Source of the DNA: Acidimicrobiia bacterium
Lineage (GTDB): Bacteria > Actinomycetota > Acidimicrobiia > Spongiisociales > ZC4RG35
Assembly: GCA_012270885.1 (NCBI GenBank)
Contig: JAAXHN010000032.1
Coordinates: forward strand, 28,688 to 92,687
Length of the DNA stretch: 64,000 nt
Direction of reading: 5' to 3'
Below are positions 1,563 through 24,683 of this stretch, one piece after another (positions within the stretch are counted from its first letter, which is position 1; the number at the start of each line of letters is the position of its first letter). A program made the position numbers and the translations under genes. Below the pieces are notes generated by a model that was not told the DNA's origin, did no database searches, and worked only from the letters and a program-made list of their open reading frames with translations.

Positions 1563-1617
1563 TCACTCTGTGACGCGATAACCTCTAATCCGGTAATTGG
1601 GTCTAGGAGGACTTTAA

Positions 1618-3414: not shown

Positions 3415-3433
3415 CGTTACTCTCTGTATTCTC

Positions 3434-4276
3434 TTGACATCCGACCATCCGGCTCAGGTCTCCTGCTATCGGCACCCCGGGCGCGTCACCCGCCTGGCAT
3501 GCAGCAGTTGTGAGCGACCGATTTGCGTGGACTGCTCGCACGACGCCTCGGTGGGACAGAAGTGCCCGAGGTGCATCGGCCGGGGTCAGCGCAATACCAG
3601 GACGGTGTCGGCCAGGATGGGCCTCCCGCCGGTCACAACCGCGTTGCTGGTCCTCACCTGCTCGGTCTACGTCTTTACATGGCTGTTGCCGGGCCTCGAG
3701 AGGGAGTTGGTAAACGAGTTGGCCATGTGGAATCTGGGAGTCTCGGTCGGACAGTGGTGGAGAATGGTGACCGCCGTGGTTCTCCACGGATCGGTGTTCC
3801 ACATCCTGTTCAACATGTGGGCGCTCTATGTGTTCGGCCCCCAGCTTGAGAGAGAATCGGGCTCCCTGCCGTTCCTGGCCATGTATCTCTCATCGGCTGC
3901 GGTCGGAAGCCTGTTCGTCTACTGGTTTTCGCACCCCTTGACCGTCTCGATCGGCGCTTCCGGCGCCATCTTCGGTGTGTTCGGGGTCTGGCTGGCAGGC
4001 GCCTACCGGTTGCGACACACCCCCTACGGCAGGCGGCTCCTGTCCCAGTTGGGATTGCTGCTGGCCATCAACTTCGCGCTGCCTCTTCTGGTTCCCAACA
4101 TTGCATGGCAGGCGCACCTGGGGGGAATGGCAGGCGGGGCCCTGATCGGGGTTGTGTGGTCGGCCCAGCGCCGGCGTTCCCAGGCCGGCCTGGGAATGGC
4201 AGCCTCCGCCCTGGTGGTGGGGACTATGGCGGTGGGGGCGGCTTTGTTCCTGGGTGGGAGCCTTCTGAGCGGATGA
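3434..4276 (+). CDS. rhomboid-family intramembrane serine protease with N-terminal Cys-rich zinc-ribbon
   Basis: CYRHPGRVTRLACSSCERPICVDCSH..KCPRC, then TM helices with HGSVFHILFNMW, GASGAIFG (catalytic Ser) and AHLGG (catalytic His). Confidence 0.85.
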   Translation: MTSDHPAQVSCYRHPGRVTRLACSSCERPICVDCSHDASVGQKCPRCIGRGQRNTRTVSARMGLPPVTTALLVLTCSVYVFTWLLPGLERELVNELAMWNLGVSVGQWWRMVTAVVLHGSVFHILFNMWALYVFGPQLERESGSLPFLAMYLSSAAVGSLFVYWFSHPLTVSIGASGAIFGVFGVWLAGAYRLRHTPYGRRLLSQLGLLLAINFALPLLVPNIAWQAHLGGMAGGALIGVVWSAQRRRSQAGLGMAASALVVGTMAVGAALFLGGSLLSG

Positions 4277-7200: not shown

Positions 7201-7782
7201 CTGGGGTTGTATCTCTCGGATCATCCCTTGGCGGAGAAGGCCGCGGCTGTCCAGGCGGCCGCCGACGCGGTGACCTCGGAGTTGAAGAACCGTCCCGACA
7301 AGGCCAAGGTCAAGATCGCGGGCCTGATCGTGTCGGCTACGAACCGGTGGACGCGCAAGGGCGACCGGATTATGGTCCTGACCGTGGAGGATCTGGACGG
7401 CGAAGTGGAAGTGGTGGTCTTCCCGCAGGCCGTGCAGCGTTACCGGGAGCTATTGGTTGCCGATCAGATGGTGGTGGTTTCAGGAAGGGTGGACCGGCGC
7501 GAAGACGTGGTGCAACTCATCGCCAGCCGGATCGAGGCGCTCCAGCCGCCCCCTCCATCGCTGAATATCAGCCTCAGCAAGAGCCTCTTCGGCGAGCGCG
7601 AGATCGCTCAGCGGCTCGGGGATGTGCTGCGCCGCCACCCAGGGCAGAGACAGGTGGTCTTCCACATCAAGGAGGACGGCACCCACATCTTCACCTCCGA
7701 TCCCAAGGTGAGCGGGGAGGCGGGATTGATCGCTGAACTCGAAGAACTACTGGGCGCCGATACAGTGGTGGTCGCGGCGTAG
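4273..7782 (+). CDS. dnaE: DNA polymerase III alpha subunit
   Basis: MSANSDFVHLHLHTEYSMLDGASRV PHP-domain start and full-length DnaE1-like sequence (GSAAGS, PDIDIDF, FNKSHSACY). The track ORF starts at 4105, but ATG 4273 matches the conserved N-terminus and overlaps the rhomboid stop. Confidence 0.95.
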   Translation: MSANSDFVHLHLHTEYSMLDGASRVPEIMAAVASDRQPAVAMTDHGVLYGAVEFYQAARDAGVKPILGMEAYVSPGSRFDRPTGDQNIRHHLTLLAYNDAGYQNLIKISSRAFLDGYWYKPRADRELLADHAEGIIAASGCLSGEIASHLVPGLVTEEGGAGGVFDPDTAARAAGEYQDIFGRENFFIEIMDHGLAHQRLLLPELAKLSQRVGAPLLATNDSHYTRPDESETHDVLLCVNTGANFSDDNRLRFDSQDFYIKSARDMRERFPSDLYPGACDNTLLVAERADVSMRTGELLLPDFPTPPGHTHTSYLEELVREGARKRFGGEVPSEVSQRIRYELGVIGEMGFETYFLIIWDLIREARDRGIRTGPGRGSAAGSMVSYCLEITQIDPLEYGLIFERFLNPGRAAMPDIDIDFDERFRGEIIDYVRSRYGSDHVAQIVTFATIKGKQAIRDAARVYGYEYRVGDQLSKLMPSAILGKEASLNQCLNPPPSESDGIVRDWYANAAGLREAYDFDADARKVIDAARGLEGLRRQDSIHAAGVVISPVPMTELVPIQRKGEGAEVVTQYEMGAVEQLGLLKMDFLGLRNLSTIERTMDMVEEATGERPDIDRVPLDDPKTFELLRAAQTIGVFQLEGDPMRVLIQRLRPDSFDDVVALVALYRPGPMGANMHNLYADRKTGRAAVAPLHPALKEILDPTYQILVYQEQVMEVSRAMAGYSMEEADNLRKAMGKKIKAVMDAEEEKFVEGCVAQGHDRATGRDLFELISHFAGYGFNKSHSACYGLVAYQTAYLKANHPAEYMAALLTSSKNNRDRTSLYLKECGRMGLSVKVPDVNESGMDYEVRSGSIRVGLSAIRNLGESVARKIIEARREKGAFVSFVDFCEKVSVEALRRNTLESLVKGGGFDSVGHTRRGLMEVMPLIVDSVVDRRRQEETGQFSLFGGGGLPDLTLPEIPVHQWDKQVRLSFEKEMLGLYLSDHPLAEKAAAVQAAADAVTSELKNRPDKAKVKIAGLIVSATNRWTRKGDRIMVLTVEDLDGEVEVVVFPQAVQRYRELLVADQMVVVSGRVDRREDVVQLIASRIEALQPPPPSLNISLSKSLFGEREIAQRLGDVLRRHPGQRQVVFHIKEDGTHIFTSDPKVSGEAGLIAELEELLGADTVVVAA

Positions 7783-7839
7783 CCGCCTGACTCGGTTTCG
7801 GTAGTCTGAAGACTGCTTGACAGCGAAAGGACGTCGGCC

Positions 7840-8058
7840 ATGGCATGGCAGGTACAGGAGGCAGAAGCAGGGTTCAGTGAAATGTTGGAGGCAATCCGAG
7901 TTTAAGGGCCCCAGATTGTCACTAAACAGGGCGTGGAGGTAGCTGTTCTGGTTGCGATGGACGAGTGGATGGAGCTTCAGCAGCGGGCCAGGCCGGGTAT
8001 CAAAGAGTGGCTACTGGCTCCGGAGGGAAGGACGGAATCGTTGATCGCCCGCGGGTGA
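7840..8058 (+). pseudogene. Phd/YefM-like type II antitoxin interrupted by an in-frame TAA
   Basis: ATG 7840 gives MAWQVQEAEAGFSEMLEAIRV, then TAA at 7903-7905. The same frame continues GPQIVTKQGVEVAVLVAMDEWMELQQRARPGIKEWLLAPEGRTESLIARG to TGA at 8056-8058. The pattern matches antitoxins that pair with PIN toxins. Confidence 0.6.
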
Positions 8059-8089
8059 AACATCTGCATCGCACCCTCCCGGATTCGGA

Positions 8090-8149
8090 TTGATTGGTGA
8101 TGCAATGATCACCGCCACCGGAATGGAGTTGTTGAACCTGTTCATTTGA
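8090..8149 (+). pseudogene. stump of a PIN (VapC) toxin gene, C-terminal about 20 codons only
   Basis: The frame reads LIGDAMITATGMELLNLFI*. It resembles the PIN C-terminus (xADALIAATA ... GLELLNPF) with the internal part deleted. It lies immediately 3' of the broken antitoxin. Confidence 0.4.
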
Positions 8150-8183
8150 GGGAGTGAATGGATCGGACATAGCCGATCTATCT

Positions 8184-8576
8184 CTATGTGGTCACGGGCC
8201 AGTGCTGAAGGTCGAGTTCAGGCATTGGGAAGTCGGTGACATTGGCGGTGGCCAGCGCTGCTCCAACTCCGACGGCCGCCGCCGCGATCAGGCAATCTGC
8301 TTGGTGGAGAGTGACTCCCCGCTCAGCATAGGTGCGCCTCCAACGGCCCGCCCGTTGTCCCTCGGTGGAACCAAGCGGCGCTAGACGCAAACCTCGGACG
8401 AGGCGACGTGCGGCGGACTCCTCCTCGGGCTGGAGACCTCGCCAGATTTCCTCAACCGAGATGGCGCAGACCCATGGCTCGACGCCGGTCCGGCGAAGTC
8501 TTCTTAGACGCTCCGCAGCGGGACGTCCGCGTAGAGCGTCGATCAACACGGTGGAGTCGAGCAGGAGCCTCGACAT
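8184..8576 (-). CDS. vapC: PIN-domain toxin VapC
   Basis: LLLDSTVLIDALRG (N-terminal Asp), SVEEIWRG, and ADCLIAAAAVGVGAALATANVTDF (distal acidic residues). Separated by only 2 nt from the upstream antitoxin stop (8579). Confidence 0.85.
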   Translation of the reverse strand: MSRLLLDSTVLIDALRGRPAAERLRRLRRTGVEPWVCAISVEEIWRGLQPEEESAARRLVRGLRLAPLGSTEGQRAGRWRRTYAERGVTLHQADCLIAAAAVGVGAALATANVTDFPMPELDLQHWPVTT

Positions 8577-8578
8577 GC

Positions 8579-8818
8579 TCAGCCGGACCGCTGGGGATCC
8601 CCCTGTCGCTGGGCGCGTACCCAGGATCCGGGATCCTCATCCCACTCATGGCCCGTATCGGGGATGGTGCCCAGCGAGGCTTCGATGTCATCCCATCGCC
8701 GTTCGTCATCGAGTCCCCGTCGGATCAGAGCTGTGATGAACGCACTACGCCTTCGGGGCCCTGCCCTACGATCCAAGTCTTCAACAAGATCGTCATCCAG
8801 TTGAATGTGTATTCTCAT
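8579..8818 (-). CDS. vapB: ribbon-helix-helix (CopG/VapB-type) antitoxin
   Basis: MRIHIQLDDDLVEDLDRRAGPRRRSAFITALIRRGL is an RHH signature. Start chosen at the Met of MRIHIQL (complement of 8816-8818). The track ORF extends to 8836. Confidence 0.75.
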   Translation of the reverse strand: MRIHIQLDDDLVEDLDRRAGPRRRSAFITALIRRGLDDERRWDDIEASLGTIPDTGHEWDEDPGSWVRAQRQGDPQRSG

Positions 8819-8926
8819 GTGCGTTATTATACACACACGATGGCAGTTGCTGGTTTAGAGAGTGGGGATGTGTCACAGGTAGGGGGGTACCCTCGATCCT
8901 GTGATTAGCCATGAGGTAGTGCCAAC

Positions 8927-11900
8927 ATGCTGAAACTGGAGGACATTGAAGCAGGCGCTTTGGTAGCTGGGCTGGTGCCCGGCAGTGCTGTGACTGTTAA
9001 GGCGGTCACCAGGCACGGTGACGATGACATTGAGGTCTTCTACGCCGATGATGAAGGGAATCTCGGAAGTGGACTCTTGTCCAGGGCAGACGAAGATCGC
9101 CTCAGCCTGGCCGCCGCCGAACGCTCTTGGCCTCTGGACGCCGACGGGGAACTGTTCAAACTCGTATCAGAAGCCCGCCGCATCGAGTCGGCCCATCTCT
9201 TCGATCCCTACGTGGCGATCAACACCGCCGACATCGATCCGCTCCCTCACCAGATCGAGGCGGTCTACCAGCGGATGCTGCCGCTCCAACCTCTCCGGTT
9301 CCTGTTGGCCGACGACCCCGGCGCGGGGAAGACCATCATGTCCGGCCTCTACATCCGAGAGTTGATGATTCGTGGCGACGTGGAGCGGGTGCTGATCATC
9401 GCCCCGGGGTCTCTGGTGGTTCAGTGGCAGGACGAACTCTGGCATCGGTTCGGGCTCGAGTTCGACATACTCTCCCGCGAGATGGTCGAGACAGTACGAA
9501 CCGGCAACCCGTTCACCGAGAAGCCGCGGCTCATTGCCCGCCTCGACCAGGTCTGTCGAAGTGAGGATCTCCTTGCCAAGCTGGATGCTTCCCGGTGGGA
9601 CCTGATCGTGGTCGACGAGGCCCACAAGATGTCGGCCCACTACTTCGGCAACAAGCTGCACAAGACAATGCGGTACCAACTCGGGGAACGCCTGGGCCTG
9701 CTAACTCGCCACTTGCTGTTGCTCACCGCCACGCCTCACAGCGGCAAGCCGGACAGCTTTCACCTGTTCTTGGCGCTCCTGGATGAGGACCGTTTCGGTG
9801 GCCGCCAGCGCAACGGAGGGACTCCCGATGTCTCCGACATTATGCGCCGCTCCGTGAAGGAGGATCTGCTCACCTTCGACGGAAAGCCACTTTTCCCCGA
9901 GAGGCGGGCCTACTCAGCCAAGTACGAACTCTCCTCGCTGGAACAGAACCTGTACGACGAGGTCACCCGCTACGTCCGGGATGGAATGGACAAGGCCAAG
10001 GAGATTGAGCAGCAGGACCGCAGGCGGGGTCTGGTGGTGGGCTTCGCTCTGACCGCCCTGCAACGCCGCTTAGCGTCCTCCCCGGAAGCCATCTATCGCT
10101 CCTTGCGCCGGAGGCGCGAACGACTGGAGAACCGCTTGGTTGAACTGGAGGTCATCGCGGAAGGTAAAGCCGCTCCTGGAGAGACTTCTCGTCTGTCCTT
10201 CGGTAAGGGGTTGTCAGAGAAGGACATCGAGTTCTTCGACTTCGACGAATACGACGATGAAGACCGCGAGCAACTCGAGACGGAGGCTATCGACCAGGCA
10301 ACGGCGGCCGCAACTGTTCCGGAACTACGGAAGGAGATCGCAACTCTCCACCGCCTGGCAGCCCTGGCCGCCGAAGTCCGAAGCTCAGGGACCGACAGGA
10401 AGTGGGATGAGTTGTCATCGATTCTCCAGTCCGAGCACATGACCGCGCCAGACGGGACCAAACGCAAGATCATTGTCTTCACCGAGCACAAGGACACCCT
10501 CGAATACCTGAGGCGTCGCATCGTGAGCTTGCTCGGTGGAGTGGACCGGGTGGTAGTGATCCATGGGTCGGTACGCAGGGAAGATCGTCGACGGCACCAG
10601 GATGCCTTTGTGAACGTGCCGGAGGTGGAGGTGATGGTCGCCACCGACGCCGCCGGTGAAGGTATCAACCTGCAGAGGGCCAACCTGATGGTCAACTATG
10701 ACCTCCCTTGGAACCCCAATCGGATCGAGCAGCGTTTCGGGCGTATCCACCGTATTGGTCAAACCGAAGTCTGTCATCTCTGGAACCTGGTCGCATACCA
10801 GACGCGGGAGGGTGCGGTCTTCCACCGACTTCTGCAGAAGATCGAGGAGCAGCGCAGGGCTCTCGGCCAGCAGGTCTACGACGTTCTGGGAGACTCCCTT
10901 ATCGACCGGTCCCTCCGGGACCTGCTGATCGAAGCCATCCAGTACGGTGACCGTCCCGAGGTGAGAGAACGCCAGACTCGCGTCATCGATCAGGAGATCG
11001 GCCCTCAGATCCAGAAACTTGTAAGTGAACGCAGCTTGGTTATCGGTGATCTTCCCGGATTCGACATCCGGGAGGTCCGTGATGACATGGAGCGAGCCAA
11101 ATTGCGAAAACTCCAGCCCGGATTCATATCGAGGTTCTTCATCGAGGCTCTCAACCGTCTGGGTGGAAGGATCGTGAAGCGAGAGAAGGGTCGGTTCGAG
11201 ATAACCAGGGTTCCCGCCAGGGTGAGAACCCGGGAGCGGGAACTCCAGGTCGGAGGTGAGTTGCAACCGAAGTATGAACGGGTGACCTTCGAAAAGGAGT
11301 TGGTGGACCACGAGTCCCGTCCTCAGGCACAGTTGCTGGCTGTCGGGCATCCGTTGTTGGAAGCTGTCGTCAAGACGGTGATCGAAAGCCACGGCGCTCT
11401 GTTACAGAGAGGGGCGATACTCGTGGATCCTCACGCCACCGACAATCGACTGAGAGGACTCACACAGCTAACTCATCTCATAGAGGACGGTAGGAGCCGC
11501 ACCGTGTCACGCCAACACTGGACGGTCGAGATTCCCGTTGGGGGAGACCCGGAAGAGACCGGGGCTGCCCGTCACCATGATCTAAAGCCCATAACCGATG
11601 AGGAGCGTGACCTGATCTCGGGCATCCTGGAGCAGAGCCAAGTCGATGATCTGCTTTCCGATAAGGCGCGGGTTTTCGCCATTACGAGCCTTTGCCGTCC
11701 TCATCTGAATCGGGTCCACCGAGCCGTGGAGTCGCGAGTGCGGCGGATGCGAACCGCAGTGGAAGAGCGACTGTGGGGTCGCATCCAGTACTGGGATGGC
11801 TACGTCAACAAAGCACACACGCTGCAACTGCAGGGGCGTCGGCCCAAGGGGGGATTCACTGCCGGCCACGCACGGAACCTGGCTGACGAACTACAGGCGA

Positions 11901-12433
11901 GACTGGACAGGCGTTGTCACGAACTGGATCTTGAACTGCAACTAACCAACCGACCTCCCGAGGTGGTTGGAGGAGCGGTAGTGGTTCCAAAGATCCTCCT
12001 GGATCGACTATCCAACTGCGACGACGAGCCACCGAATACCCACCCAAAACAGACCCAAGAGGTGGACGAGCGGGCCGTGAAAGCTGTGATGGCCGCTGAG
12101 CAAAGACTGGGACGCCAACCAAAGGAGATGTCCCATAACAACCCCGGCTACGACATCGAGAGCCGCGATCCACAAACCGGCATGCTCTACTTCATCGAAG
12201 TCAAGGGCCGGATCGAAGGAAGTGACACTGTAACGGTCAGCGGCCGCCAGGTGATCCACTCCCAGAACGTCCCCGACCACTTCATTCTGGCCGTTGTCGA
12301 GGTCCCCACGGACCGCAAGGCCAAACCGACGGTGCGCTACGCCAGCCGACCCTTTGAAGGCATGGAAGTTCCATTTGACAGGTTCGCCATCACCGTGCCG
12401 CTGTCGGAGCTCAACCTGCAGGAACCCTCATGA
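8927..12433 (+). CDS. SNF2-family helicase fused to a C-terminal DUF3883 / PD-(D/E)xK-like nuclease domain (defence-module helicase)
   Basis: Helicase motif I LLADDPGAGKTIMSG, motif II VVDEAHKM, motif III LLLTATPHSG, and C-lobe AAGEGINLQRANLMVNYDLPWNPNRIEQRFGRIHRIGQ. The C-terminal 130 aa read NNPGYDIESRDPQTGMLYFIEVKGRIEGSDTVTVSGRQVIHSQNVPDHFILAVV (D..E-x-K arrangement). Confidence 0.85.
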   Translation: MLKLEDIEAGALVAGLVPGSAVTVKAVTRHGDDDIEVFYADDEGNLGSGLLSRADEDRLSLAAAERSWPLDADGELFKLVSEARRIESAHLFDPYVAINTADIDPLPHQIEAVYQRMLPLQPLRFLLADDPGAGKTIMSGLYIRELMIRGDVERVLIIAPGSLVVQWQDELWHRFGLEFDILSREMVETVRTGNPFTEKPRLIARLDQVCRSEDLLAKLDASRWDLIVVDEAHKMSAHYFGNKLHKTMRYQLGERLGLLTRHLLLLTATPHSGKPDSFHLFLALLDEDRFGGRQRNGGTPDVSDIMRRSVKEDLLTFDGKPLFPERRAYSAKYELSSLEQNLYDEVTRYVRDGMDKAKEIEQQDRRRGLVVGFALTALQRRLASSPEAIYRSLRRRRERLENRLVELEVIAEGKAAPGETSRLSFGKGLSEKDIEFFDFDEYDDEDREQLETEAIDQATAAATVPELRKEIATLHRLAALAAEVRSSGTDRKWDELSSILQSEHMTAPDGTKRKIIVFTEHKDTLEYLRRRIVSLLGGVDRVVVIHGSVRREDRRRHQDAFVNVPEVEVMVATDAAGEGINLQRANLMVNYDLPWNPNRIEQRFGRIHRIGQTEVCHLWNLVAYQTREGAVFHRLLQKIEEQRRALGQQVYDVLGDSLIDRSLRDLLIEAIQYGDRPEVRERQTRVIDQEIGPQIQKLVSERSLVIGDLPGFDIREVRDDMERAKLRKLQPGFISRFFIEALNRLGGRIVKREKGRFEITRVPARVRTRERELQVGGELQPKYERVTFEKELVDHESRPQAQLLAVGHPLLEAVVKTVIESHGALLQRGAILVDPHATDNRLRGLTQLTHLIEDGRSRTVSRQHWTVEIPVGGDPEETGAARHHDLKPITDEERDLISGILEQSQVDDLLSDKARVFAITSLCRPHLNRVHRAVESRVRRMRTAVEERLWGRIQYWDGYVNKAHTLQLQGRRPKGGFTAGHARNLADELQARLDRRCHELDLELQLTNRPPEVVGGAVVVPKILLDRLSNCDDEPPNTHPKQTQEVDERAVKAVMAAEQRLGRQPKEMSHNNPGYDIESRDPQTGMLYFIEVKGRIEGSDTVTVSGRQVIHSQNVPDHFILAVVEVPTDRKAKPTVRYASRPFEGMEVPFDRFAITVPLSELNLQEPS

Positions 12434-12511
12434 GGTCACCAACGAGCCTCCTCAAGTAGCCATGAACCGAGAGGACTCGGTTGAACTGTAGTTCTGTTGG
12501 GGTTCCGAGCC

Positions 12512-12865
12512 TTAACCCCAGAAGATGAAGGTGGGGTCGCGTTCTACCTCTGCGATCAGTTGTTCGATCGAAGGTGTCGCCTCTGCAAGGTCGTACTCGC
12601 GGAACCTCAGGTTGCTGTCACTCCAATACAACGACCATTCTCCGCGCACCTTGGTGTAGCGAAAGCGGCAGATCGGGTCGCGAGTCCACTCGGGTCCCAT
12701 GTCATCACTCCACGGCGGTCGGCACTCCAGAACCGTAATCGTACGGGGAGTAAGGTCGATCTCGAATCGGATCAACCCCTGGGCTCCGGCAGGCAAAGCA
12801 GCGTTCCGTCGGTCTATCCACCGACGCACCCGCATCAGGTCACGATCCGGAATCACACCTCGCAT
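12512..12865 (-). CDS. DUF3024-family protein (function unknown)
   Basis: 117 aa. The pattern ..ECRPPWSDDMGPEWTRDPICRFRYTKVRGEWSLYWSDSNLRFREY....LIAEVERDPTFIFWG matches my memory of the DUF3024 consensus (W-LYW-D-N...Y, terminal FWG). Family assignment is from memory only. Confidence 0.6.
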   Translation of the reverse strand: MRGVIPDRDLMRVRRWIDRRNAALPAGAQGLIRFEIDLTPRTITVLECRPPWSDDMGPEWTRDPICRFRYTKVRGEWSLYWSDSNLRFREYDLAEATPSIEQLIAEVERDPTFIFWG

Positions 12866-12936
12866 AGTAGATTCCCGAGGCGCACGGTCAACCAGAATGC
12901 CTATGCAGACAATCCTGAGCGTGTTTCGGTGATGGG

Positions 12937-14442
12937 TCAGGCGCCGTGGTAAAGGCGGTCGGGGTCAATCAACTCCACGTCGGACCGGCGGTTGGCGCCA
13001 CCGATTAGGGCGGGCGTGAAGCCATCCAAGGAGAAGAGCAGAAGCTTGAGGGTGGGGGAGGGAGAGACTCGGTCTCGGCCGGCCAGCAGTTGGGTGAGGC
13101 GGTCGAGGCGGGTCAGGTCGGAGATGTCGAGGCGGGAGGCCTTGGCTTCTCCCACAGCCTGGAGTGTCAGGTGGCGCCCCGGGCCGCCTTCCGGGGCGGC
13201 GGCGGCGATGTCCAGTTCGAAGGATTGGCGCCGGTTGGGGTCGTTGACCTGAACGCGGTGCGCGGTGCCGACCGGGCCGCCCAGGGTCTCCGGCGCCGCA
13301 TACCGGTTGACCCACTCACGACAGAGAAACTCGAAATGGGGACCCACGATCTGAGATCGGTAGGTGCGGGCCGAGGCGGACCAGACTTCCGAAGCCCTGC
13401 GTTGTTCCAGCATCGCCCGGTGGCGCCGGGTGATCAGATGGTGGAAGCGGACGATGGGGTCGGCAATCCGGTAGACGGGCCGCCGGGCAGTGAGCAGGTC
13501 GTCGTCCCGCACCACGAACCCGGCGGTGGTCATCACTTTGAGGTGATGAACGATGTCACCGGGGGCCCGACCCACCGCCGCGGCGATACGTCCCTGCGAG
13601 ATCGGACCCCGGGAGATGGCTTGCAACAGTGAGTAGTAGGGCGCCTCGGCGGTGATTCGGGGGTCCTCTCTGAGGAGGTACTCGTCCTCTCGGAACAGGG
13701 CGTGGGACGGATTGATCGCCGTGGAGGCAAGCCAGTCGCCCAGGTCGTCGGTGCGAAGGGGTGACCCGGCGGCGATGGTCAGGTCCTTGTATCCGGCGGC
13801 GCCCCCCACGATGGCGTCGACGGCGAATGCCACTTCCGGGTCGTCGATCCCCCAAAAGCCGCGGGCCTGACGGTAGTCGAAAGACGCCAGGGGCATGTCG
13901 AGCGTCGCCCGCCCCCGCATGGGAGAGGCGCCGCTGAGGATGGAGGTCATAACCGACATAGCCGATCCGCACACGATGACGGTAACCGGCGAGGTCCAGT
14001 CGCCACCCACACTCCCGGCGGTGGTCTCATCAATCAGGGCCTGGATGGTGGAGTCCAACTCGGGACTGGTGTGACGCAGGTAGGGATATTCGTCAAGCAC
14101 CAGCACTCCTGGTCCCCTCGGGGCTTGACCCAGCATGTTGACGGCGAAGGTCAAAGCGGCGGTCCAGTCGCCGAAGCGAAAGGGGGGCTCTCCGGGGTGG
14201 TGATGACTCAGAATGGCCGCGAACCTGTCCAGGGCCGTTCGTCGCTCCTCTTGGAGGGCGAGGTGGTATATCCCGCCCACCGCCTCCACCAACCCCCGCA
14301 GCAGGTGGCTCTTACCGAATCGACGCCTTCCATATACGATCCCCAACCTCAGCCGCGGTCCGGGTCCGGTGACGAAACCGGCCAGATCAGCCCATTCCAC
14401 ATCCCGGTTGTACACGTTGTGTGGCTTGTTTGCCGACATCAC
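12937..14442 (-). CDS. STAND/archaeal-ATPase-like P-loop NTPase with winged-helix and DUF234-like (possible PD-(D/E)xK) C-terminal domain
   Basis: Walker A GRRRFGKSHLL and Walker B VLVLDEYPYL. wHTH-like ISQGRIAAAVGRAPGDIVHHLKVMTTAGFVVRDD..RRPVYRIADPIVRFHH. The C-terminus has FELDIAAA ... LQAVGEAKAS (D ... E-x-K). Confidence 0.7.
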   Translation of the reverse strand: MMSANKPHNVYNRDVEWADLAGFVTGPGPRLRLGIVYGRRRFGKSHLLRGLVEAVGGIYHLALQEERRTALDRFAAILSHHHPGEPPFRFGDWTAALTFAVNMLGQAPRGPGVLVLDEYPYLRHTSPELDSTIQALIDETTAGSVGGDWTSPVTVIVCGSAMSVMTSILSGASPMRGRATLDMPLASFDYRQARGFWGIDDPEVAFAVDAIVGGAAGYKDLTIAAGSPLRTDDLGDWLASTAINPSHALFREDEYLLREDPRITAEAPYYSLLQAISRGPISQGRIAAAVGRAPGDIVHHLKVMTTAGFVVRDDDLLTARRPVYRIADPIVRFHHLITRRHRAMLEQRRASEVWSASARTYRSQIVGPHFEFLCREWVNRYAAPETLGGPVGTAHRVQVNDPNRRQSFELDIAAAAPEGGPGRHLTLQAVGEAKASRLDISDLTRLDRLTQLLAGRDRVSPSPTLKLLLFSLDGFTPALIGGANRRSDVELIDPDRLYHGA

Positions 14443-14735: not shown

Positions 14736-17517
14736 ATGGAGAGGCAAGGTCATCCGGTGCCCTACAAGCGGAAGCTGATTGAGGTGGCTTTGCCGCTCGA
14801 TGCCATCAGCAAGGCATCGGCTCGGGAGAAGTCGATCCGGCATGGGCATCCTTCGACTTTGCATCTTTGGTGGGCGCGTCGGCCGTTGGCGGCGGCCAGG
14901 GCCGTGCTGTGGGCTTCTTTGGTGGACGACCCGTCGTCCCACCCCGACACATTTCCTACCCAGGAGGAGCAGGCCGAGGAGCGCGAGCGACTGTTCGAGA
15001 TCTTGAAGGAACTAGTCGTGTGGGAGAACTCCAACAACGCTCGGGTCTTGGAGAAGGCCCGGCTCGAGATCGAGAAGTCCTGTGACGGTGAGTTGCCGAA
15101 CATCCTTGATCCGTTCTGCGGGGGGGGGGGCAATTCCCTTGGAGGCGCGGCGGTTCGGTCTTCCGGCTTATGGAGGTGACTTAAATCCGGTAGCGGTGCT
15201 GGTCTCCAAGGGGTTGGTCGAGATTCCGCCTCGGTTTAAGGGATTGCCGCCAGTGAATCCGGATGCCCAGTCTGGCCTGGCTGTGAGCTCCTGGGAGCGT
15301 GCGCAGGGATTGGCGGATGACGTCGGCTATTACGGTCGTTGGATGAGGGAGCGGGCATACGTGAGGATTGGCCACCTGTATCCGAAGGTGAGGCTGCCTG
15401 CTTCCGAGGGGACAGGTGACGCAACGGTGATCGCCTGGTTTTGGGCGCGGACGGTCGAGTCTCCGGATCCCTCGTGGAGTGGTCATGTGCCGCTGGTTCG
15501 TTCCTGGGTGGTTCGCCGGGCGAAGAAGAACAAACCGGCAGTGTGGATATCACCGGAAGTTAATCGGTCCAATCAAACTATTAGCTACCGGATTACGGAG
15601 GGAGACGATCCGCCGGGGAGGGGGACGGTTGACAGGAGGGGCGGGAGATGTGTTGCCACCGGGTCGCCAATCGGGTTTCCCTACATTAGGGAACAGGGTC
15701 GCCGAGGGCTGATGGGCAGGTCGTTGATTGCGGTTGTGGCCGAAGGGAACCGGGGTCGGGTATATGTTTCGCCTTCTGCACAACCAGAGGCACCTCAACC
15801 AACCTGGGAACCAACCTCCCCGCTCCCTAAGCGAACTCTGGGGTTCCGAGTACAGCAATATGGGATGATCGAGTGGGCCGACTTGTTCACTGACCGTCAG
15901 CTTGTGGCTTTGTCTACGTTCTCGGATCTATTGGGTGAGGTGCGGTCGGTGGTGGAAACCGACGCGAAGATGGCGGGTTTGGTGGATGACGGAGTCCGTT
16001 TGCGGGACGGTGGTTCCGGGGTGGTGGCGTATGCGGATGCAGTGGTTACCTATCTGGCGTTCGTGGTTGACAAGTGCGCCGATTATTGGTCCACCATTTG
16101 CAGTTGGCACAACGGGAGAGAGTTGATCCGAAACACTTTCGGGCGGCAAGCGATACCGATGGTCTGGGACTACACAGAAGCCAACCCCTTCTCCACCTCT
16201 TCGGGGAACTGGATGGGACAGGTCACCTGGGTGCGGAAGGCGGTAGCGGCGGCACCCGGGCGAGGTGGTGGGGAGGTGTTGCAGCGGGACGCCGTGGCCC
16301 GGATCCGGGAGGTCGCCTCACCGGTGGTGTGTACCGATCCTCCCTATTACGACAACATCTCCTATGCCGATCTGTCGGACTTCTTCTACGTGTGGCTGCG
16401 TCGCAACGTGGGGGATGTTTGGCCGGAGGAGACCGCCACTTTACTGTCTCCCAAGGTTGAGGAGTTGATCGCCAACCCTTATCGGGCGGGATCGAAGCAG
16501 GCTGCAAAGGAACACTTTGAGGACGGGATGATTGATGTTCTTAGCGAAGTTGCCGCTTCTCAAGACTCGCAGTTTCCAGCCACGATCTTCTATGCCTACA
16601 AGCAGCAGGAGACAAAGGAAGGAGATAGGACATCCACGGGGTGGGAGACATTCCTGCAGGGCTTGGTGGATGCCGGGTTGCAGGTTACCGCTACTTGGCC
16701 GATCAGGACCGAACTCTCCAACCGGCCCGTGGCCAGAGGAACCGCGGCATTGGCCTCTTCCATCGTGATCGCCTGCCGTCCGAAGCGGCCGGATGCTTCG
16801 CTGGCTACCCGGCGGGAGTTCCTTGATGCCCTTCAAGCGGAGATGGCGGATCGGGTTCGGGTAATGCAGAGGGACGCCATTGTGCCGGTGGATATGGCCC
16901 AGTCGGCGATCGGTCCCGGCATGGAAGTGTTCTCCCGGTTTGCCAAGGTGGTTGAAGCCGACGGGAGTGAGACGCGGGTTCGCACGGCTATCGGCTTGAT
17001 TAATGAGACCCTGCGGGAGGTGCTGTCTTCCGAGGACACCGAGCTTGACGCCGATACCCGCTGGGCTTTGACTTGGTACGAACAGCACCGACACGACGCG
17101 GCTCCGTTCGGGGATGCTGACACCTTGTCCAAAGCCAAGAACACCTCGGTAGCGGGAGTCGAGCGGGCTGACATCATCGAAAACGTGGCGGGCAAGGTTC
17201 GGATTCTCACCCGTGACGAACTGGAACCGGAGTGGGATCCGGTGGCGGACCCGCGGCGGACTGACTGGAAACTTGCCCAATACCTCATTCTCTTTCTTGC
17301 GGAGTCTGAGGAGAAGGCCGGCAATCTGCTCCGAAAGGTAGGCGGAGGGCTGGGTGATCGGGCCCGCCGTCTCGCTTGGCTGCTCCACCAGATAGCGGAT
17401 CGCAAAGAGTGGTCGTCCGATGCGGCCGCTTATAACGGTCTTGTCCAGTCCTGGCACGACATCCAAAGCCACGCCCAGGTCGGGCCTCCGGCTGAGCAGA
17501 CTTTCGAGGGGATGTAG
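14736..17517 (+). pseudogene. DUF1156-family DNA methyltransferase (DPPY type), reading frame broken by +1 frameshift in a G11 tract
   Basis: N-terminal ORF (14727/14736-15179): [66 protein letters not shown], then out-of-frame NSLGG..*. ORF 15082-17517 continues in the other frame as [27 protein letters not shown] ... VVCTDPPYYDNISYADLSDFFYVWLRR. Removing one G restores [13 protein letters not shown]. Confidence 0.85.
15120..15130 (+). repeat. homopolymeric G11 tract at the frameshift site (codes the GGG of SAM-binding motif I)
   Basis: Counted directly: G at 15120 plus ten G at 15121-15130, flanked by TGC and CAATTCCC. Ten G would be in frame (TGC GGG GGG GGG GCA ATT CCC). Confidence 0.95.
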
Positions 17518-17520
17518 GCG

Positions 17521-20500
17521 ATGGCGGTTACCAATCACGAGCGGGTTGGCAAGGCTCTGACGCTGGTGCGTGACGCCATCCGTCCTGAAGTGGAGCAGAC
17601 TTGGCGCGGCCAGTTCGGCAACAAGTGGGTGCAGCAGGTGAGCGGAAGGATTCACCATCATGGTGGTCCCACTAGCCCCGATGATCTTGCCTTTCTGCTG
17701 AGGGGAATGGATGCCACCTGGGATCAGTTCTTCCGTCAAACTCAGTCCCGATCGACTCGTAGCTACCTGCATCTCCTTTGGGAGGCTCGCAACGAATGGG
17801 CGCACACAAAGCGTTTCAGTTCCGACGAAACCCTCCGCATCCTCGACCATTGTGAGATGATGCTTTTGGCATTCCAGGCCGGAGAGCCAGCAGAGGAGGT
17901 GCAGGAAATCAAACGCACTCTACTCCGCCAGGTGTATGCCGAAGAGCGGCGGACGGCGGAGCGCCGGGCCGCCGCTGGGGCCACCAAGGGGGCACCTCTT
18001 GCAGGTCTGAAGCCGTGGCGGGAAGTGATAACGCCTCATCCCGATGTGCGAGAGGGCCGTTTCGCCCAGGCCGAGTTCGCGGCCGATCTGCGCCAGGTGG
18101 TGAGAGGCGAAGCAGCGTCGGAGTACGGGGACCCCACCGATTTCTACGCCCGGACCTTCGTTACCGACGGGCTGAGGGATCTGATCCGCAACGCCGCCCG
18201 GCGCCTGTCCGGCCAGGGAGGCGACCCGGTGGTGGAGCTTCAAACCGGGTTCGGAGGCGGAAAGACTCACAGCCTGATTGGTCTCTATCATCTGGCCTCC
18301 GGACGGTCTGCTCTGCCGGGAGTGGGTGAGACGTTGGAGGAGGATTACCTGTCGGTTCCCGAGGAGGTGCGGCGGGCGGTGTTCACCGGACAGTTGACTT
18401 CGCCTTCTTCGCCCGTGGTCACGGTGGGAGACATCGAAATCCGGACCATGTGGGGCTACATCGCCTACCAGTTGGGAGGTGTAGAAGGATTTCGGATGGT
18501 GGCTGACGACGATCGCAACGCCACCAATCCCGGCGACAAGCTGGTGGAGTTGTTCCGCAGATACGGTCCGGTCCTGATCTTGATCGACGAATGGGTGGCC
18601 TACGCTCGTGGTCTGCCCATGGCAAACGGGGAGAGGCTGCTCCCCGCTGGTGATTTCGACACGCAGTTCACCTTCGCCCAGGCTTTGACCGAATCCGTGG
18701 CATCGGTGGACAATGCTCTGCTGGTGGTCTCGGTACCCGAATCAAGCGACCCGAGTACGGCGTCCGGCGATCCTCGGGAGGACAGTCTTGAGATCGGAGG
18801 AGAGAAAGGCCGTATGGCGCTCGACCGCTTGCGCCATGTGCTGGCTCGCAAGGCGTCACAGTGGCAACCGGCATCGTCCGAAGAGTCGTTCGAGATCGTG
18901 CGGCGCCGGCTGTTCGAGCCCCTGGAGTCGTCGATGGCCCGTCACAAGGACGCAGTGGTCAAGGCCTACCACAGGTTCTATCTGGACAACGCCCGAGAGT
19001 TTCCTTCAGAGACGAGGGAGCGAGACTACCTGAGGCGGATGGAAGCCGCCTATCCCATCCATCCTGAGTTCTTCGACCGCCTCTACCAGGACTGGTCGAC
19101 GCTCGAGCGGTTCCAGCGGACCCGTGGGGTACTGCGGTTGATGGCGAGTGTCATCTCTGAGTTGTGGGACCGCGACGATAAGTCTTTGATGATCATGCCG
19201 GGAGTCGTCCCGATGGACTCCGCGAAAGTGGTGACTGAACTAACCCGATATGTGGACGACCGCTGGAAACCGATCATCGACGCCGATGTAGACGGCCCCG
19301 GGTCGCTGCCTCTGCGCTTTGACCGGGATCGGAAGAACCTGGGCAGATACTGGGCCTGCCGCCGAGTGGCCCGCGCCACCTATTTGGGGTCGGCTCCTCT
19401 GCCGGTTGATCGGCGCGGAATCGACCGGACTCGCATCGTGCTGGGATGTGTCCAGCCTGGCGAGCGGCCGGGTGTGTTCGGTGACGCCCTCCGACACCTG
19501 GCGGGCGAGGCCACCTACCTCTACAACCAGCAGATGAGGTACTGGTACGACACCAAGCCGTCGTTGACCAAGATGGCGGCGGACCGGGCGCTCTCTAACT
19601 TCAGCGACGACGATGCGGATATCGAGTTGCGCGGACGGATGCAGAAGATCAGGGCCGGTGAACCGCTCGGCTTTGTCCATGTTTTCCCCGACGGGCCGGG
19701 AGACGTCCCGGATGAGGACGACAGAGTCCGGCTGGTGATCCTTCCCCCAAAGCAATATCACGAGAGAGGAGCTGAGTCTCCGGCGGAAGAGGCGGCCCAA
19801 GCAATCCTGGAGCAGCGTCGAGGTGGGCCTCGTATCAACCGGAACATGCTGGTGTTCCTGGCCGCCGAGAGGGCAAGGGTTCCCGAGTTGCGTCAGGCTG
19901 TTCGCAGTCAGATGGCTTGGCAGTCCATCATCGACGACCAGGGAGAGTTTGTTCTCAACCTAACTCCCGCCGACGTCCGCCAGGCCGAGACTAGGAGGGC
20001 TGAGGCAAAACGCACTGTGGAACTGCGGATTGAGGAGACGTTCAGCCAGGTGCTCTACCCGGTTCAGGCACCGGGTGAATCTGAAATCCGGTGGGCGGCG
20101 GTACGAGCAAGTTCCGTTGGCAACCTGGCCGAGCGGGTGGCCCGCAAACTGGAATCATCGGAACACCTGATCCCGAGTTACCACGGCACACGGGTCCGTC
20201 GAGATCTCGACCGAAAGGATGCCCGGTTGTGGAAAGGACCCGGCGACGGAACCCATGTCGGCATTCAAGACCTGTGGTCCTACTACTGCCGCTACCTCTA
20301 CATGCCGCGCCTTGCCGGTTTCGGCGTTCTCGCTACCGCGATCTCCGGGGGCGTGGGCAGTATGAGTTGGCAGACCGAGACCTTTGCCTATGCCGAGTCC
20401 TACGATGAAGAGTCCGACCGTTTCCTGGGCCTTCAAACAGCGCAGCATGTGGACGTGACGCGGAGTCTTGAGGCAGTGCTGGTCCATCCGGATCGGGCAT

Positions 20501-20844
20501 GGGCCCAGATCCAGGCTGACTCCGATGTCCCCAATGCTGGGGGAACTGACACAGACGGGAATGGCGGTGAAGGGAAGGGCGATGACCCCGACAGCGGAAC
20601 AGATCCCGACAAGCTTCCCCTCACCCGCTTCTACGGTCAGGTCGATTTGGATTCAGTGAGGGCCATTCGCGACCTGGAGAGCATCCTCAAGGAGGTCGTC
20701 TCGCATCTCCGCCGGGACGGCAAAGAGGTGACCATCTCGGTCGAGGTGAACGCAGAGGCCGAGGGATTCGACGCCCATACCATGCGGGTGGTGAGCGAAA
20801 ACGCTGCTCAACTCGGCTTCAAGGCACACGAATTCGAGGAGTAA
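17521..20844 (+). CDS. Swt1-like HEPN domain fused to DUF499 P-loop ATPase (defence-module ATPase)
   Basis: N-terminal HEPN signature LWEARNEWAHTKRF (R-x4-H at 17788-17805). Walker A GFGGGKTHSLIGL and Walker B VLILIDEWVAY. About 1100 aa, typical of DUF499 proteins. Starts 4 nt after the methyltransferase stop. Confidence 0.8.
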   Translation: MAVTNHERVGKALTLVRDAIRPEVEQTWRGQFGNKWVQQVSGRIHHHGGPTSPDDLAFLLRGMDATWDQFFRQTQSRSTRSYLHLLWEARNEWAHTKRFSSDETLRILDHCEMMLLAFQAGEPAEEVQEIKRTLLRQVYAEERRTAERRAAAGATKGAPLAGLKPWREVITPHPDVREGRFAQAEFAADLRQVVRGEAASEYGDPTDFYARTFVTDGLRDLIRNAARRLSGQGGDPVVELQTGFGGGKTHSLIGLYHLASGRSALPGVGETLEEDYLSVPEEVRRAVFTGQLTSPSSPVVTVGDIEIRTMWGYIAYQLGGVEGFRMVADDDRNATNPGDKLVELFRRYGPVLILIDEWVAYARGLPMANGERLLPAGDFDTQFTFAQALTESVASVDNALLVVSVPESSDPSTASGDPREDSLEIGGEKGRMALDRLRHVLARKASQWQPASSEESFEIVRRRLFEPLESSMARHKDAVVKAYHRFYLDNAREFPSETRERDYLRRMEAAYPIHPEFFDRLYQDWSTLERFQRTRGVLRLMASVISELWDRDDKSLMIMPGVVPMDSAKVVTELTRYVDDRWKPIIDADVDGPGSLPLRFDRDRKNLGRYWACRRVARATYLGSAPLPVDRRGIDRTRIVLGCVQPGERPGVFGDALRHLAGEATYLYNQQMRYWYDTKPSLTKMAADRALSNFSDDDADIELRGRMQKIRAGEPLGFVHVFPDGPGDVPDEDDRVRLVILPPKQYHERGAESPAEEAAQAILEQRRGGPRINRNMLVFLAAERARVPELRQAVRSQMAWQSIIDDQGEFVLNLTPADVRQAETRRAEAKRTVELRIEETFSQVLYPVQAPGESEIRWAAVRASSVGNLAERVARKLESSEHLIPSYHGTRVRRDLDRKDARLWKGPGDGTHVGIQDLWSYYCRYLYMPRLAGFGVLATAISGGVGSMSWQTETFAYAESYDEESDRFLGLQTAQHVDVTRSLEAVLVHPDRAWAQIQADSDVPNAGGTDTDGNGGEGKGDDPDSGTDPDKLPLTRFYGQVDLDSVRAIRDLESILKEVVSHLRRDGKEVTISVEVNAEAEGFDAHTMRVVSENAAQLGFKAHEFEE

Positions 20845-22827: not shown

Positions 22828-23049
22828 ATGGCCGACCAACTTGATGTAGATGCGATGATCGCCCGTTATCGGGGCAGGGCGGAGGCGGTGCAGAACCGCT
22901 CGCTCCCTCCGGTGGCGGGCGAGGAACGACGGCGGTTCATCCAGCAGGCCGAGGAGGACTACATGGACTACTCGCTGGTGGGAGCGGCGAAGTGGTCGGT
23001 GGAGGAAGGCCACTTGGTACTGCGCATTCCGCTGGGTCGTGGGGGCTAA
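22828..23049 (+). CDS. hypothetical small protein (73 aa)
   Basis: ORF with a plausible non-shadow composition (MADQLDVDAMIARYRGRAEAVQNRSLPPVAGEERRRFIQQAEEDYMDY..). No family recognised. Confidence 0.4.
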   Translation: MADQLDVDAMIARYRGRAEAVQNRSLPPVAGEERRRFIQQAEEDYMDYSLVGAAKWSVEEGHLVLRIPLGRGG

Positions 23050-24683
23050 AACTCCAGCGGCAAGGGCATGGATTGTCCCAAGAGACGCCTTTCTAAGCGG
23101 CGCCCAGCTTCCAGCCTCTCTAAATCCACCCCGTCGGTGTTGAGATACTTAAAGGCGTTGGCGATGCGGGTGTGGCCCGCCACCTCCGCGATCTGGCGGT
23201 GCATCTCTATGCACACCCGCCGGTAATTGGGATGGCCGGCGGGTTGGGTGCGCAGTTCGATCAGATGTAGGGCCTGCCGGGCGTTCATCTCCATCATGAA
23301 CCTGATGTGATAGGCGAATGGCACGGCGTACTGGGCGACCTGACGGCCCAGGGAGGTCCGCACCCGCTCATAGAACTCCCCGGCCTCTTCCAGGGTCCGA
23401 TCCCAGAGGCCGTCCAGGCCGGCGTCGGCCAACTCCTCGGGTCGCTCGTGGCCGAGCCGCGTGGTGAGCGGCTGCCACTCGATGGTCATCATGCGGTGGC
23501 GCTGCAGATCCCGGAACGCCCCGAAGTCGCACACCACGTCGAAGCGGTAGTAGCTTCGCTCCAGGGCCCGACCCGGCTTGTGGCGGCGGTTTCGGCGTTC
23601 TCCCACCATCGACGCCACCAACTCGGTGACCTGCTCCGATGACATTCCGTCCACGGTCTCCCGCAGTTTGGCATCGGGGAGTTCGGAGACGCTGTACAGT
23701 GCGGCGGCAGCCAGCTTCCGCTCCGCGTCGGGATCCCAGTCGGTGAGGGTCACCTCGGCTGCCGGAGCCGGGCTGACGCCCAGGCGTTCGGCAATCTCCT
23801 CCAGACGGAAGCCGGTCTCGGAGAGATAATTGCTCCACAGCACTCCCCGGTCGGGAAGGTCCACCCGGGTGAGGAAGGAGGGGATCACCTTGCGAAGTTC
23901 GGTGAGCATCATCGCACCATAGTCCCGCACTTCCCTCAGGGGATGAGCCTGCATGCGGATCAGCGCCATCTCATAGGCCTGGCCGGTGGCGTAAATGCCC
24001 ATGTTGGAGAGCGTCGAGGCGGGGAGAAGTCCCCGGATGGAGTCGAAGGCCTTGGCCCGGATGGCGGCCCGGTGTATCCAAGCCGGGTCCCCTTCCCGGC
24101 GGGGGTGGCGCTGGGTGAAGTACTGGATCATCACCGGGCGCATCTCCCGGTAGGTCTCGAACAGGCGGTTCATCATGGCCAGGTAATCGTCCCGGAGGGG
24201 TGACTCCTCGACCTCGGGCGGGAGAAAGAACCGGTAGCCGTCCCCGAGTCGCTGGTCGTAGGCGATGTAGCGGGTGGACTGCTCGAGGTAGGCGGCCAGG
24301 CGTCCCCATTCCAGGACCTTGGTCAGAAGGTTCGAGGCCTGCTCGCAGGCCAGATGGACTCCTCCCAGCTGCGCTACCGAGTCGTCTCCGTACTCGTAAA
24401 AGACCCGTTTGTAGAGGTCCTCGGCCCGCTTGAGCTTGATGAGGGGATCATCGGGGCTCATTTCGTCGGCGATGGCCTCGATTCCGGTGTCGGGATCTGT
24501 GACGAACTCGTCCAGGAAGAGCCGGCGGAGGGACTTGTGGGTTCTGCTGTAGCGGGCGAACAAAGCGCCCTTCACGACCTCGGGGAGATTGACCAGAGCG
24601 AACACCGGCCCGTCGAGGTCTGTGAAGAAACGGCTCAGAATCCCGCGCTCGGACTCGGTGAAGGACTCTTGGTGGTACGCCAT
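23046..24683 (-). CDS. double-length ThyX-like (FAD-dependent thymidylate synthase-like) protein
   Basis: 545 aa. The C-terminal half has FRDLQRHRMMT (the RHR of the ThyX motif). The N-terminal half has LEQSTRY (the S-x-RY part) but WGR in place of RHR. Confidence 0.6.
   Translation of the reverse strand: MAYHQESFTESERGILSRFFTDLDGPVFALVNLPEVVKGALFARYSRTHKSLRRLFLDEFVTDPDTGIEAIADEMSPDDPLIKLKRAEDLYKRVFYEYGDDSVAQLGGVHLACEQASNLLTKVLEWGRLAAYLEQSTRYIAYDQRLGDGYRFFLPPEVEESPLRDDYLAMMNRLFETYREMRPVMIQYFTQRHPRREGDPAWIHRAAIRAKAFDSIRGLLPASTLSNMGIYATGQAYEMALIRMQAHPLREVRDYGAMMLTELRKVIPSFLTRVDLPDRGVLWSNYLSETGFRLEEIAERLGVSPAPAAEVTLTDWDPDAERKLAAAALYSVSELPDAKLRETVDGMSSEQVTELVASMVGERRNRRHKPGRALERSYYRFDVVCDFGAFRDLQRHRMMTIEWQPLTTRLGHERPEELADAGLDGLWDRTLEEAGEFYERVRTSLGRQVAQYAVPFAYHIRFMMEMNARQALHLIELRTQPAGHPNYRRVCIEMHRQIAEVAGHTRIANAFKYLNTDGVDLERLEAGRRLERRLLGQSMPLPLEF

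Follow-up and report, generated by a model that had tools for sequence, protein, structure and literature searches.

A candidate phase-variable poly-G tract in motif I of the hmaB methyltransferase gene of an Acidimicrobiia Hma defence locus

It is textbook knowledge that defence methyltransferases undergo phase variation in the type I and type III systems of a few pathogens and in a single BREX (bacteriophage exclusion) system, from Streptomyces. In the type III and type I phasevarion mod genes of Neisseria, Haemophilus, Helicobacter and Campylobacter, all of them host-adapted and mostly low-GC pathogens, a repeat in the 5' part of the methyltransferase open reading frame (ORF), with lengths differing among strains, turns the gene ON or OFF by frameshift, and the methyltransferase doubles as the recognition subunit. 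In the system for phage growth limitation (Pgl) that Streptomyces coelicolor carries, a type 2 BREX system, the tract consists of 8 G within pglX, and gain or loss of one G switches the phenotype at rates of 1e-2 to 1e-4 (Sumby and Smith, 2003, as summarised in PMC4365076; see also PMC9122589). The Pgl methyltransferase is needed for defence, so that the OFF state silences the system. Here we analyze a stretch of 64 kb with 63% G+C (the window; contig JAAXHN010000032.1 of the Acidimicrobiia bacterium assembly GCA_012270885.1), in which an unbroken run of 11 G interrupts hmaB, the methyltransferase gene of a Hma-type defence locus.

Published accounts of Hma (Payne et al., through PADLOC; Liu et al., 2024, PMC11232893; PMC12839542) describe three core genes, with the helicase-nuclease and HEPN-DUF499 architectures also present in the window, and an insertion hotspot between hmaA and hmaB (PMC11232893). 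The system has been renamed Type-1 DUF499-centred BREX-related system, with the methyltransferase predicted to mark self DNA, and restriction of foreign DNA predicted to fall to the ATPase and the helicase-nuclease (PMC12839542). In the only experiment on Hma, HmaA of Halomonas meridiana, the one component tested for anti-phage activity, protected Escherichia coli from T4 by itself, T4 infectivity was unchanged by HmaB overexpression, and around 15% of hmaA loci have no hmaB (Liu et al., 2024, PMC11232893). Unlike what is seen here, neither repeats nor frameshifted hmaB genes nor phase variation are described in the available passages of PMC11232893 and PMC12839542. A full-text literature search returned no paper in which phase variation is connected with Hma, with DUF1156 or with sponge symbionts. 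We know of no report of defence-methyltransferase phase variation in uncultured symbionts.

The closest precedent of the window locus is the pglX G-tract. In both cases the host is a high-GC actinobacterium, the poly-G lies within the gene of a (here predicted) N6-adenine methyltransferase of a BREX-type defence system, and a single G gained or lost makes the difference, in hmaB by shifting the frame. Unlike in Pgl, the methyltransferase is a DUF1156 HmaB instead of a PglX family member, the partners are different, without PglZ or PglW, and the run has 11 G instead of 8 and lies exactly in motif I, which binds S-adenosylmethionine (SAM); whereas the switching rate was measured in Pgl, the window tract is known from sequence alone. 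On these features the locus is one that would work like the pglX switch, and not a member of BREX. The likeness to phasevarion mod genes resides in where the repeat lies, toward the start of the methyltransferase gene in its 5' part, in the frameshift that it produces and, among the relatives, in lengths that differ between strains; a recognition role like that of Mod would be a further parallel. However, Hma is not a type III or type I system, and the genome here is an uncultured, Acidimicrobiia-like one and not that of a pathogen. Some orphan repeat-bearing hmaB-like genes described below (L007, L087, L094) would be a nearer analogue of the phasevarion than the window hmaB.

Inspection of the window sequence confirmed what an earlier note on this DNA had proposed, namely that the G run interrupts a DUF1156 methyltransferase gene at the Gly triplet of motif I. 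The run is flanked by TTC TGC on its 5' side and CAATTCCC on its 3' side (GAT CCG TTC TGC, G11, CA ATT CCC TTG GAG). Read from ATG 14736, where we place the start codon in correction of that note (alternatively TTG 14727), ORF 1 arrives at ...ILDPFCGGG and then continues in the wrong frame to a stop codon at 15177-15179, while the rest of hmaB follows displaced by +1 nt (Table 1). The downstream part amounts to 86% of the protein, in a frame that is +1 with respect to ORF 1; the note had given 90% and the -1 frame. Removal of one G yields a single 926-aa ORF and, following the same frame logic, G10 or G13 would be in frame and G11 out of frame. No homopolymer in the window exceeds the G11: the runners-up are three runs of 7 (two G7 and one A7), none of which interrupts an ORF, and no other homopolymer of at least 8 nt exists in the 64 kb. 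GGG represents 30% of the Gly codons in the window, which gives a prior of about 2.8% for three consecutive GGG, and none of the 14 other Gly-Gly-Gly tripeptides in window genes is encoded by GGG only. The G11 run is by itself unusual and could have originated by chance, but chance falls far short of accounting for the tracts that relatives bear at the same site. On the + strand of the whole window there are about two G5 runs for every C5 run (102 and 49), which fits the location of most genes on that strand and the high use of GGG for Gly.

The repaired protein matches the PADLOC HmaB model from end to end (1051 bits, model positions 5-958 of 967), contains the Pfam domain DUF1156 at residues 18-89 (1.6e-31) and carries motif I DPFCGGG and motif IV DPPY (at TDPPYYDN). 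The tract region aligns with motif I of the class-I SAM methyltransferase 5e71 (ILDPFMGAGGILIEA); this was the sole PDB match, it is weak (E = 0.21) and it serves for placing motif I, nothing more. All three genes that define Hma are found at the locus, i.e. the helicase-nuclease HmaA (with SNF2-rel_dom, Helicase_C and NOV_C domains in Pfam), the DUF1156 methyltransferase once the additional G is removed, and the adjacent HEPN-DUF499 ATPase, whose gene begins 4 nt past the hmaB stop codon. PADLOC and Pfam thereby bore out the identities of defence methyltransferase, helicase-nuclease and HEPN-ATPase assigned in the earlier note. Between 8.9 and 20.8 kb there are only hmaA, an embedded ATPase gene, hmaB and hmaC; neither Pfam nor PADLOC gave any match to the PglZ or PglX families at this locus, so that the gene set of BREX proper (PglZ, BrxC/PglY, PglX) is not present. 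Judged by its gene content, the locus is a Hma system, alias Type-1 DUF499-centred BREX-related system. No second hmaB was found in the window.

The rest of the window appears to be sound. The genes hmaA, hmaC, dnaE, trpE and moeA are full length, no second lesion was detected across the remaining hmaB codons or in hmaA or hmaC, and neither the list of ORFs nor a Pfam check of the large genes revealed another frameshifted gene in the 64 kb; these took the place of a scan based on G+C content at third codon positions, dropped since stop-to-stop ORFs overlap routinely. These facts, along with the OFF state of the nearest N-terminal relative (see below), fit a real, recent or reversible OFF state, and the earlier suggestion that the island is under inactivation found no support.

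Relatives of the locus come from metagenome-assembled genomes (MAGs) of sponge symbionts, mostly Acidimicrobiia including Ca. Spongiisociaceae. Five repeat-bearing loci lie on public HiFi chromosomes: L005 on OZ242000.1, L006 on OZ251535.1, L007 on OZ241842.1, L008 on OZ246890.1 and L009 on OZ251578.1. Poly-G at the same Gly triplet was present in ten independent related hmaB genes (lengths and frames in Table 1). ON and OFF states were assigned from the conserved DPF and IPLE frames together with tblastn segments, ORF length being an unreliable guide in GC-rich DNA, where alternative frames stay open for more than 100 codons. Including a second repeat site described below, L005, L087, L094, L090, P0040 and P0266 were read as ON alleles, and the window, L001, L003, L004, L006, L007, L008, L009, L089 and L091 as OFF. 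The tracts of clade (i) sit in the upstream copy, hmaB', of loci with two hmaB genes. Two tract-bearing copies showed additional changes: a 15-nt deletion in L093 (3406-3425) removes IPLEA just past the tract, and in L092, on a contig with 3x coverage, an additional G is present some 30 nt upstream (at about 5930); either could reflect decay or a low-coverage error. Two other candidates were discarded. The apparent N-terminal truncation of P0005 (842 aa) was a gene-calling artefact due to a non-ATG start, without any tract, and P0103, expected to be split at the poly-G, is truncated instead at an (AG)15 repeat upstream.

The distribution of run lengths sets these tracts apart. At 86 in-frame motif-I sites of the fetched loci, the longest G run was of 2-6 nt in 83 and of 10-12 nt in 3, with none of 7-9, and orthologues without the tract encode the Gly triplet by mixed codons. 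In an unbiased set of 79 species-representative GTDB loci (1.38 Mb), where G/C runs of at least 9 nt and dinucleotide repeats of at least 6 units were counted, 7 of the 18 long repeats lie in the 5' region of hmaB (-60 to +520), which makes up 3.4% of the total length (binomial p = 1.1e-6). Such a repeat is present in each of the set's five close Acidimicrobiia relatives, ON in one and OFF in four. The tract-bearing genes of clade (i) showed pairwise ratios of nonsynonymous to synonymous substitutions (dN/dS) of 0.095-0.16 at dS values of 0.46-1.6, a comparison between L007 and L087 gave 0.25, and the stable copies 0.14-0.21. The low dN/dS at dS up to 1.6 indicates that the tract has persisted through deep divergence in genes under selection; we estimate that the neutral probability of three or four fourfold-degenerate sites all staying G at that divergence is in the order of 1e-3.

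Variation was also apparent within species. Of the best 120 short-protein matches to a query with the N-terminal 131 residues, 42 received a flag for a frameshift inside the Gly run or directly behind it, both wrong frames being represented, and around 35 of them remained after false flags were removed by eye. Single clusters at 90% identity contained 4-6 distinct tract states each: in a Spongiisociaceae cluster these were GGG-V, GGGG-D, GGGG-R, GGGGG-D, GGGGG-R and the in-frame GGGGSIPLEA, and Mobiluncus mulieris isolate proteins and metagenome copies (including WP_278972062.1 and WP_211710569.1) showed AGG-C, AGGG-C, AGG-V and AGGG-V. Several states in one cluster, obtained from different sources and pipelines and with isolate genomes included, imply that tract length differs among strains of one species. 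Series of motif-I frameshifts were also seen in human- and animal-associated Actinomycetota, isolates included (P0148; P0267-P0270, from Mobiluncus mulieris; P0171, from Thermophilibacter sp.; P0139, P0165 and P0179-P0207), and RefSeq labels the 181-182-aa fragments as 'DUF1156 domain-containing protein'.

The immediate relatives of the window gene offer a different picture. L084, L085 and L086, the three closest full-length relatives, are syntenic with the window (hmaB-hmaC...Thy1) and have no tract, breaking the triplet with mixed codons (Table 1). Since the window tract is two synonymous changes away from their codons, it is young in this lineage. On the question raised in the earlier note of whether orthologues keep or break the G run, the answer is divided, other hmaB lineages keeping runs of G10-G15. 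The nearest N-terminal relative, P0122 (92% identity), does have the tract and is OFF in the opposite wrong frame, so that the alleles seen in the sub-lineage of the window (the window itself and P0122) are all OFF. The HmaB product of the window (P0001) was not found on other contigs, its cluster being the NCBI/ENA mirror alone.

From these results, we consider it probable, at roughly 0.6, that the G11 of the window is a genuine contingency tract, i.e. a phase-variable ON/OFF switch in hmaB. Slipped-strand mispairing in replication would alter the length of the G run; with G10 (or G13) the full-length HmaB would be made (ON), whereas G11 or G12 would leave the 147-aa N-terminal DUF1156 fragment, devoid of the catalytic domain (OFF). 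What the window has recorded would then be OFF, beside intact hmaA and hmaC genes, and its tract might switch reversibly at a useful rate. By analogy with the PglX of BREX and the Mod subunit of type III systems, HmaB may be required for target recognition, in which case OFF would silence the entire system as it does in Pgl; such a requirement could explain why genomes that are OFF but keep hmaA and hmaC intact are viable. The combination of an OFF hmaB with intact partner genes, observed in the window, L008 and L089, is consistent with HmaB being needed for restriction. The slipped-strand switch proposed in the earlier note thus appears well supported for the gene family, according to the tracts found both ON and OFF at one site, the repeats in the 5' region, the purifying selection and the variation in length within species, while the state of the window itself is unverified and its closest relatives are tract-free. 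If the switch is real, part of the MAG defence repertoire of these bacteria would be stochastically switched, and split hmaB annotations would be switch states and not junk. It would also place a testable constraint on Hma: survival of HmaB-OFF cells with intact HmaA and HmaC would mean that HmaB is probably needed for restriction, like PglX and Mod.

Several facts weigh against a switch in the window. The distinction between G11 and G10 depends on a single assembly and is unverified, and many of the relatives are long-read metagenome assemblies, some with 3-14x coverage, in which homopolymer length is the main class of error. Indeed, homopolymer length is the commonest error in long reads, and a miscount of a true G10, with hmaB intact and a tract that is incidental to the choice of GGG codons and lacks meaningful switching, would require only one base to be wrong. 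The relatives are mostly HiFi-type assemblies, as judged by contig names (ctg..._14x_l, ..._3x_l), GGG is common enough for a G10 to appear by chance in about 3% of cases, and the closest relatives have no tract. Nonetheless we regard this explanation as unlikely, since the pattern in the family would need most consensus calls at one site to be erroneous. Lengths span 10-15, beyond a one-base miscount, out-of-frame tracts also appear in scaffolds with short-read-like names (L004, with G12, and L093), the G15 allele of L001 was repeated in a second, k-mer-based assembly (L002), and isolate genomes of Mobiluncus mulieris have out-of-frame tracts as well. In addition, the neighbouring site has dinucleotide repeats, which are not prone to homopolymer error, and no other apparent frameshift exists in the 64 kb.

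The tract being recently derived in the window lineage, with long-term upkeep by selection shown for other clades only, is a further point against a switch, and one that favours a plain pseudogene, in which a real frameshift would be the earliest lesion in an hmaB gene or Hma system undergoing decay, without adaptive reversible switching. The extra lesions in L093 and L092 indicate that at least some tract copies are decaying, hmaB can be lost, as shown by the hmaA loci devoid of it (PMC11232893), and in the less biased samples OFF alleles amount to 5 of 8, about what neutral drift of tract length would give; overall ON:OFF counts are biased, several loci having been picked for truncation. This alternative seems to us somewhat less likely still than a miscount, given that there is no second lesion in 926 codons, hmaA and hmaC are intact, a one-base slip in G11 is readily reversible, and other clades combine the tract with strong purifying selection over dS of up to 1.6 and include ON alleles. 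The protection of E. coli from T4 by HmaA alone (PMC11232893) also counts against the switch proposed. Finally, recoding through RNA-polymerase slippage or ribosomal frameshifting on G11 could yield some full-length HmaB, making the gene leaky or constitutive instead of OFF. Long homopolymers can provoke transcriptional slippage, and out-of-frame tracts are common in relatives under purifying selection. However, slippage-prone tracts are known mostly as A/T runs, and the occurrence of both wrong frames and many lengths fits variation at the DNA level and not one programmed event; no frameshift-stimulating structure or slippery heptamer turned up, although no dedicated search was made. We consider recoding highly improbable.

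Table 1. Features of the window Hma locus and repeats in related hmaB genes and defence islands (positions in the window or in the locus named).
Locus	Feature	Position	Strand	State, size or evidence
Window	hmaA: SNF2 helicase with C-terminal NOV_C (PD-(D/E)XK) nuclease	8927..12433	+	intact, 1168 aa; PADLOC HmaA 1366 bits, positions 1-1162 of 1176
Window	embedded ATPase in hmaA-hmaB insertion hotspot	12937..14442	-	501 aa; weak ATPase_2 and PDC-S27-like matches
Window	hmaB 5' fragment: DUF1156 helical domain, DPFCGGG, 16 out-of-frame codons, stop	14736..15179	+	147 aa; product P0121
Window	hmaB 3' part: methyltransferase core with DPPY motif IV, variable target-recognition region, C-terminal domains	15118..17517	+	795 codons, +1 frame
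Window	G11 simple-sequence repeat over three Gly codons of motif I (DPFCGGGA)	15120..15130	+	sequence, frame logic, motif I alignment
Window	hmaC: HEPN_Swt1 fused to DUF499 AAA+ ATPase	17521..20844	+	intact, 1107 aa; HmaC 955 bits, Pfam
L001, clade (i)	motif I tract			G15, out of frame
L002	motif I tract, independent k-mer-based Logan assembly of L001 allele			G15
L003, clade (i)	motif I tract			G13, out of frame
L004, clade (i)	motif I tract			G12, out of frame
L092, clade (i)	motif I tract			G13, out of frame
L093, clade (i)	motif I tract			G14, in-frame length, 15-nt deletion directly 3' of tract
L005, clade (i)	motif I tract			G11, in frame
L007, clade (iii)	motif I tract			G11, out of frame
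L087, clade (iii)	motif I tract			G12, in frame
L094, further clade	motif I tract			G11, in frame
L009, same further clade as L094	motif I tract			G11, out of frame
L089, DNA-pattern scan of metagenomes	motif I tract			G11, out of frame; compact hmaA-hmaB-hmaC locus, distant lineage
L090, DNA-pattern scan of metagenomes	motif I tract			G10, in frame
L091, DNA-pattern scan of metagenomes	motif I tract			G10, out of frame
L086	Gly triplet GGT GGG GGA			80% identity, no tract
L084	Gly triplet GGC GGG GGA			77% identity, no tract
L085	Gly triplet GGT GGA GGA			77% identity, no tract
L001	two-copy Hma locus	4399-7147 and 9292-12084		
L003	two-copy Hma locus	5603-8349 and 12227-14356		
L004	two-copy Hma locus	5586-8355 and 10503-13292		
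L005	two-copy Hma locus	866-3610 and 8001-10781		
L092	two-copy Hma locus	5602-8349 and 12196-14358		
L008	G14 at upstream site	8322-8335		out of frame; neighbouring hmaC intact
L006	(GA)14 at upstream site	8355-8382		out of frame
L088	(AG)15 at upstream site	5925-5954		out of frame, truncated
P0040	(RE)5 at upstream site			in frame
P0059	GGGG at upstream site			in frame
L047	C11	7974-7984		about 20 nt ahead of hmaB ATG
L081	C12	4452-4463		ahead of 987-codon ORF
L025	C11 then (CA)6	15844-15865		
L067	C27	17918-17944		
L041	C15 (poly-Pro) within hmaB	8392-8406		in frame

Besides motif I, a second repeat site was identified about 10 codons 5' of it, at the SC-DGE-LPNV position (Table 1). In the two-copy loci, the upstream hmaB' always has the poly-G, whereas the downstream hmaB, adjoining hmaC, encodes its Gly triplet by a mixture of codons; the interval is occupied by further genes of defence type (a Lactamase_B-like pair, HipA/GmrSD, HigB/kinase). 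Identity between the copies is around 70%, with the strongest divergence at alignment columns 320-520, which probably correspond to the target-recognition region. L006, L007, L009, L087, L088 and L094 are orphan hmaB-like genes with repeats, in housekeeping surroundings that lack both hmaA and hmaC for 6-8 kb, and are possibly phasevarion-like. As a broader and tentative proposal, less probable than a switch in the window itself, HmaB-type (DUF1156) methyltransferases might be contingency genes family-wide across Actinomycetota, from sponge-symbiont Acidimicrobiia to gut-type Coriobacteriia such as Thermophilibacter and to Mobiluncus. The repeat hotspot would have evolved repeatedly, either within motif I, as poly-G, or some 10 codons upstream of it, as poly-G or (AG)n; a phase-variable hmaB' with divergent target recognition, upstream of a stable hmaB, would let populations alternate specificity or activity stochastically, the orphans would be phasevarion-like epigenetic switches, and it would follow from OFF genomes being viable that restriction by Hma requires HmaB.

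Other repeats were noticed on the way. P0177, a DUF1156 N-terminal fragment, has (SL)n just past motif I, implying a CT/TC repeat at another position, as seen in the protein only. Long C/G runs are located at or just 5' of the start of long ORFs in defence islands of relatives (L047, L081, L025 and L067), and the run in L041 is inside hmaB; all of these may be promoter or 5' phase-variation tracts.

With regard to the surroundings, the island is placed on the chromosome between dnaE (4105-7782) and the MscS and Thy1 genes. The cargo between hmaA and hmaB varies, the ATPase of the window being replaced by a TIR protein in L084 (6975-7841) and by GmrSD-family proteins in L085 (1276-3012) and L086 (3027-4697), which matches the published insertion hotspot (PMC11232893). 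A 472-aa ORF at 40347-41765 (+ strand) has a weak GmrSD_C match and is possibly a further defence gene 20 kb downstream, and the Thy1 (ThyX) protein encoded at 23046-24683 (- strand) is unusually long, with 545 aa, its best Thy1 stretch spanning residues 313-502 in addition to a second matched stretch.

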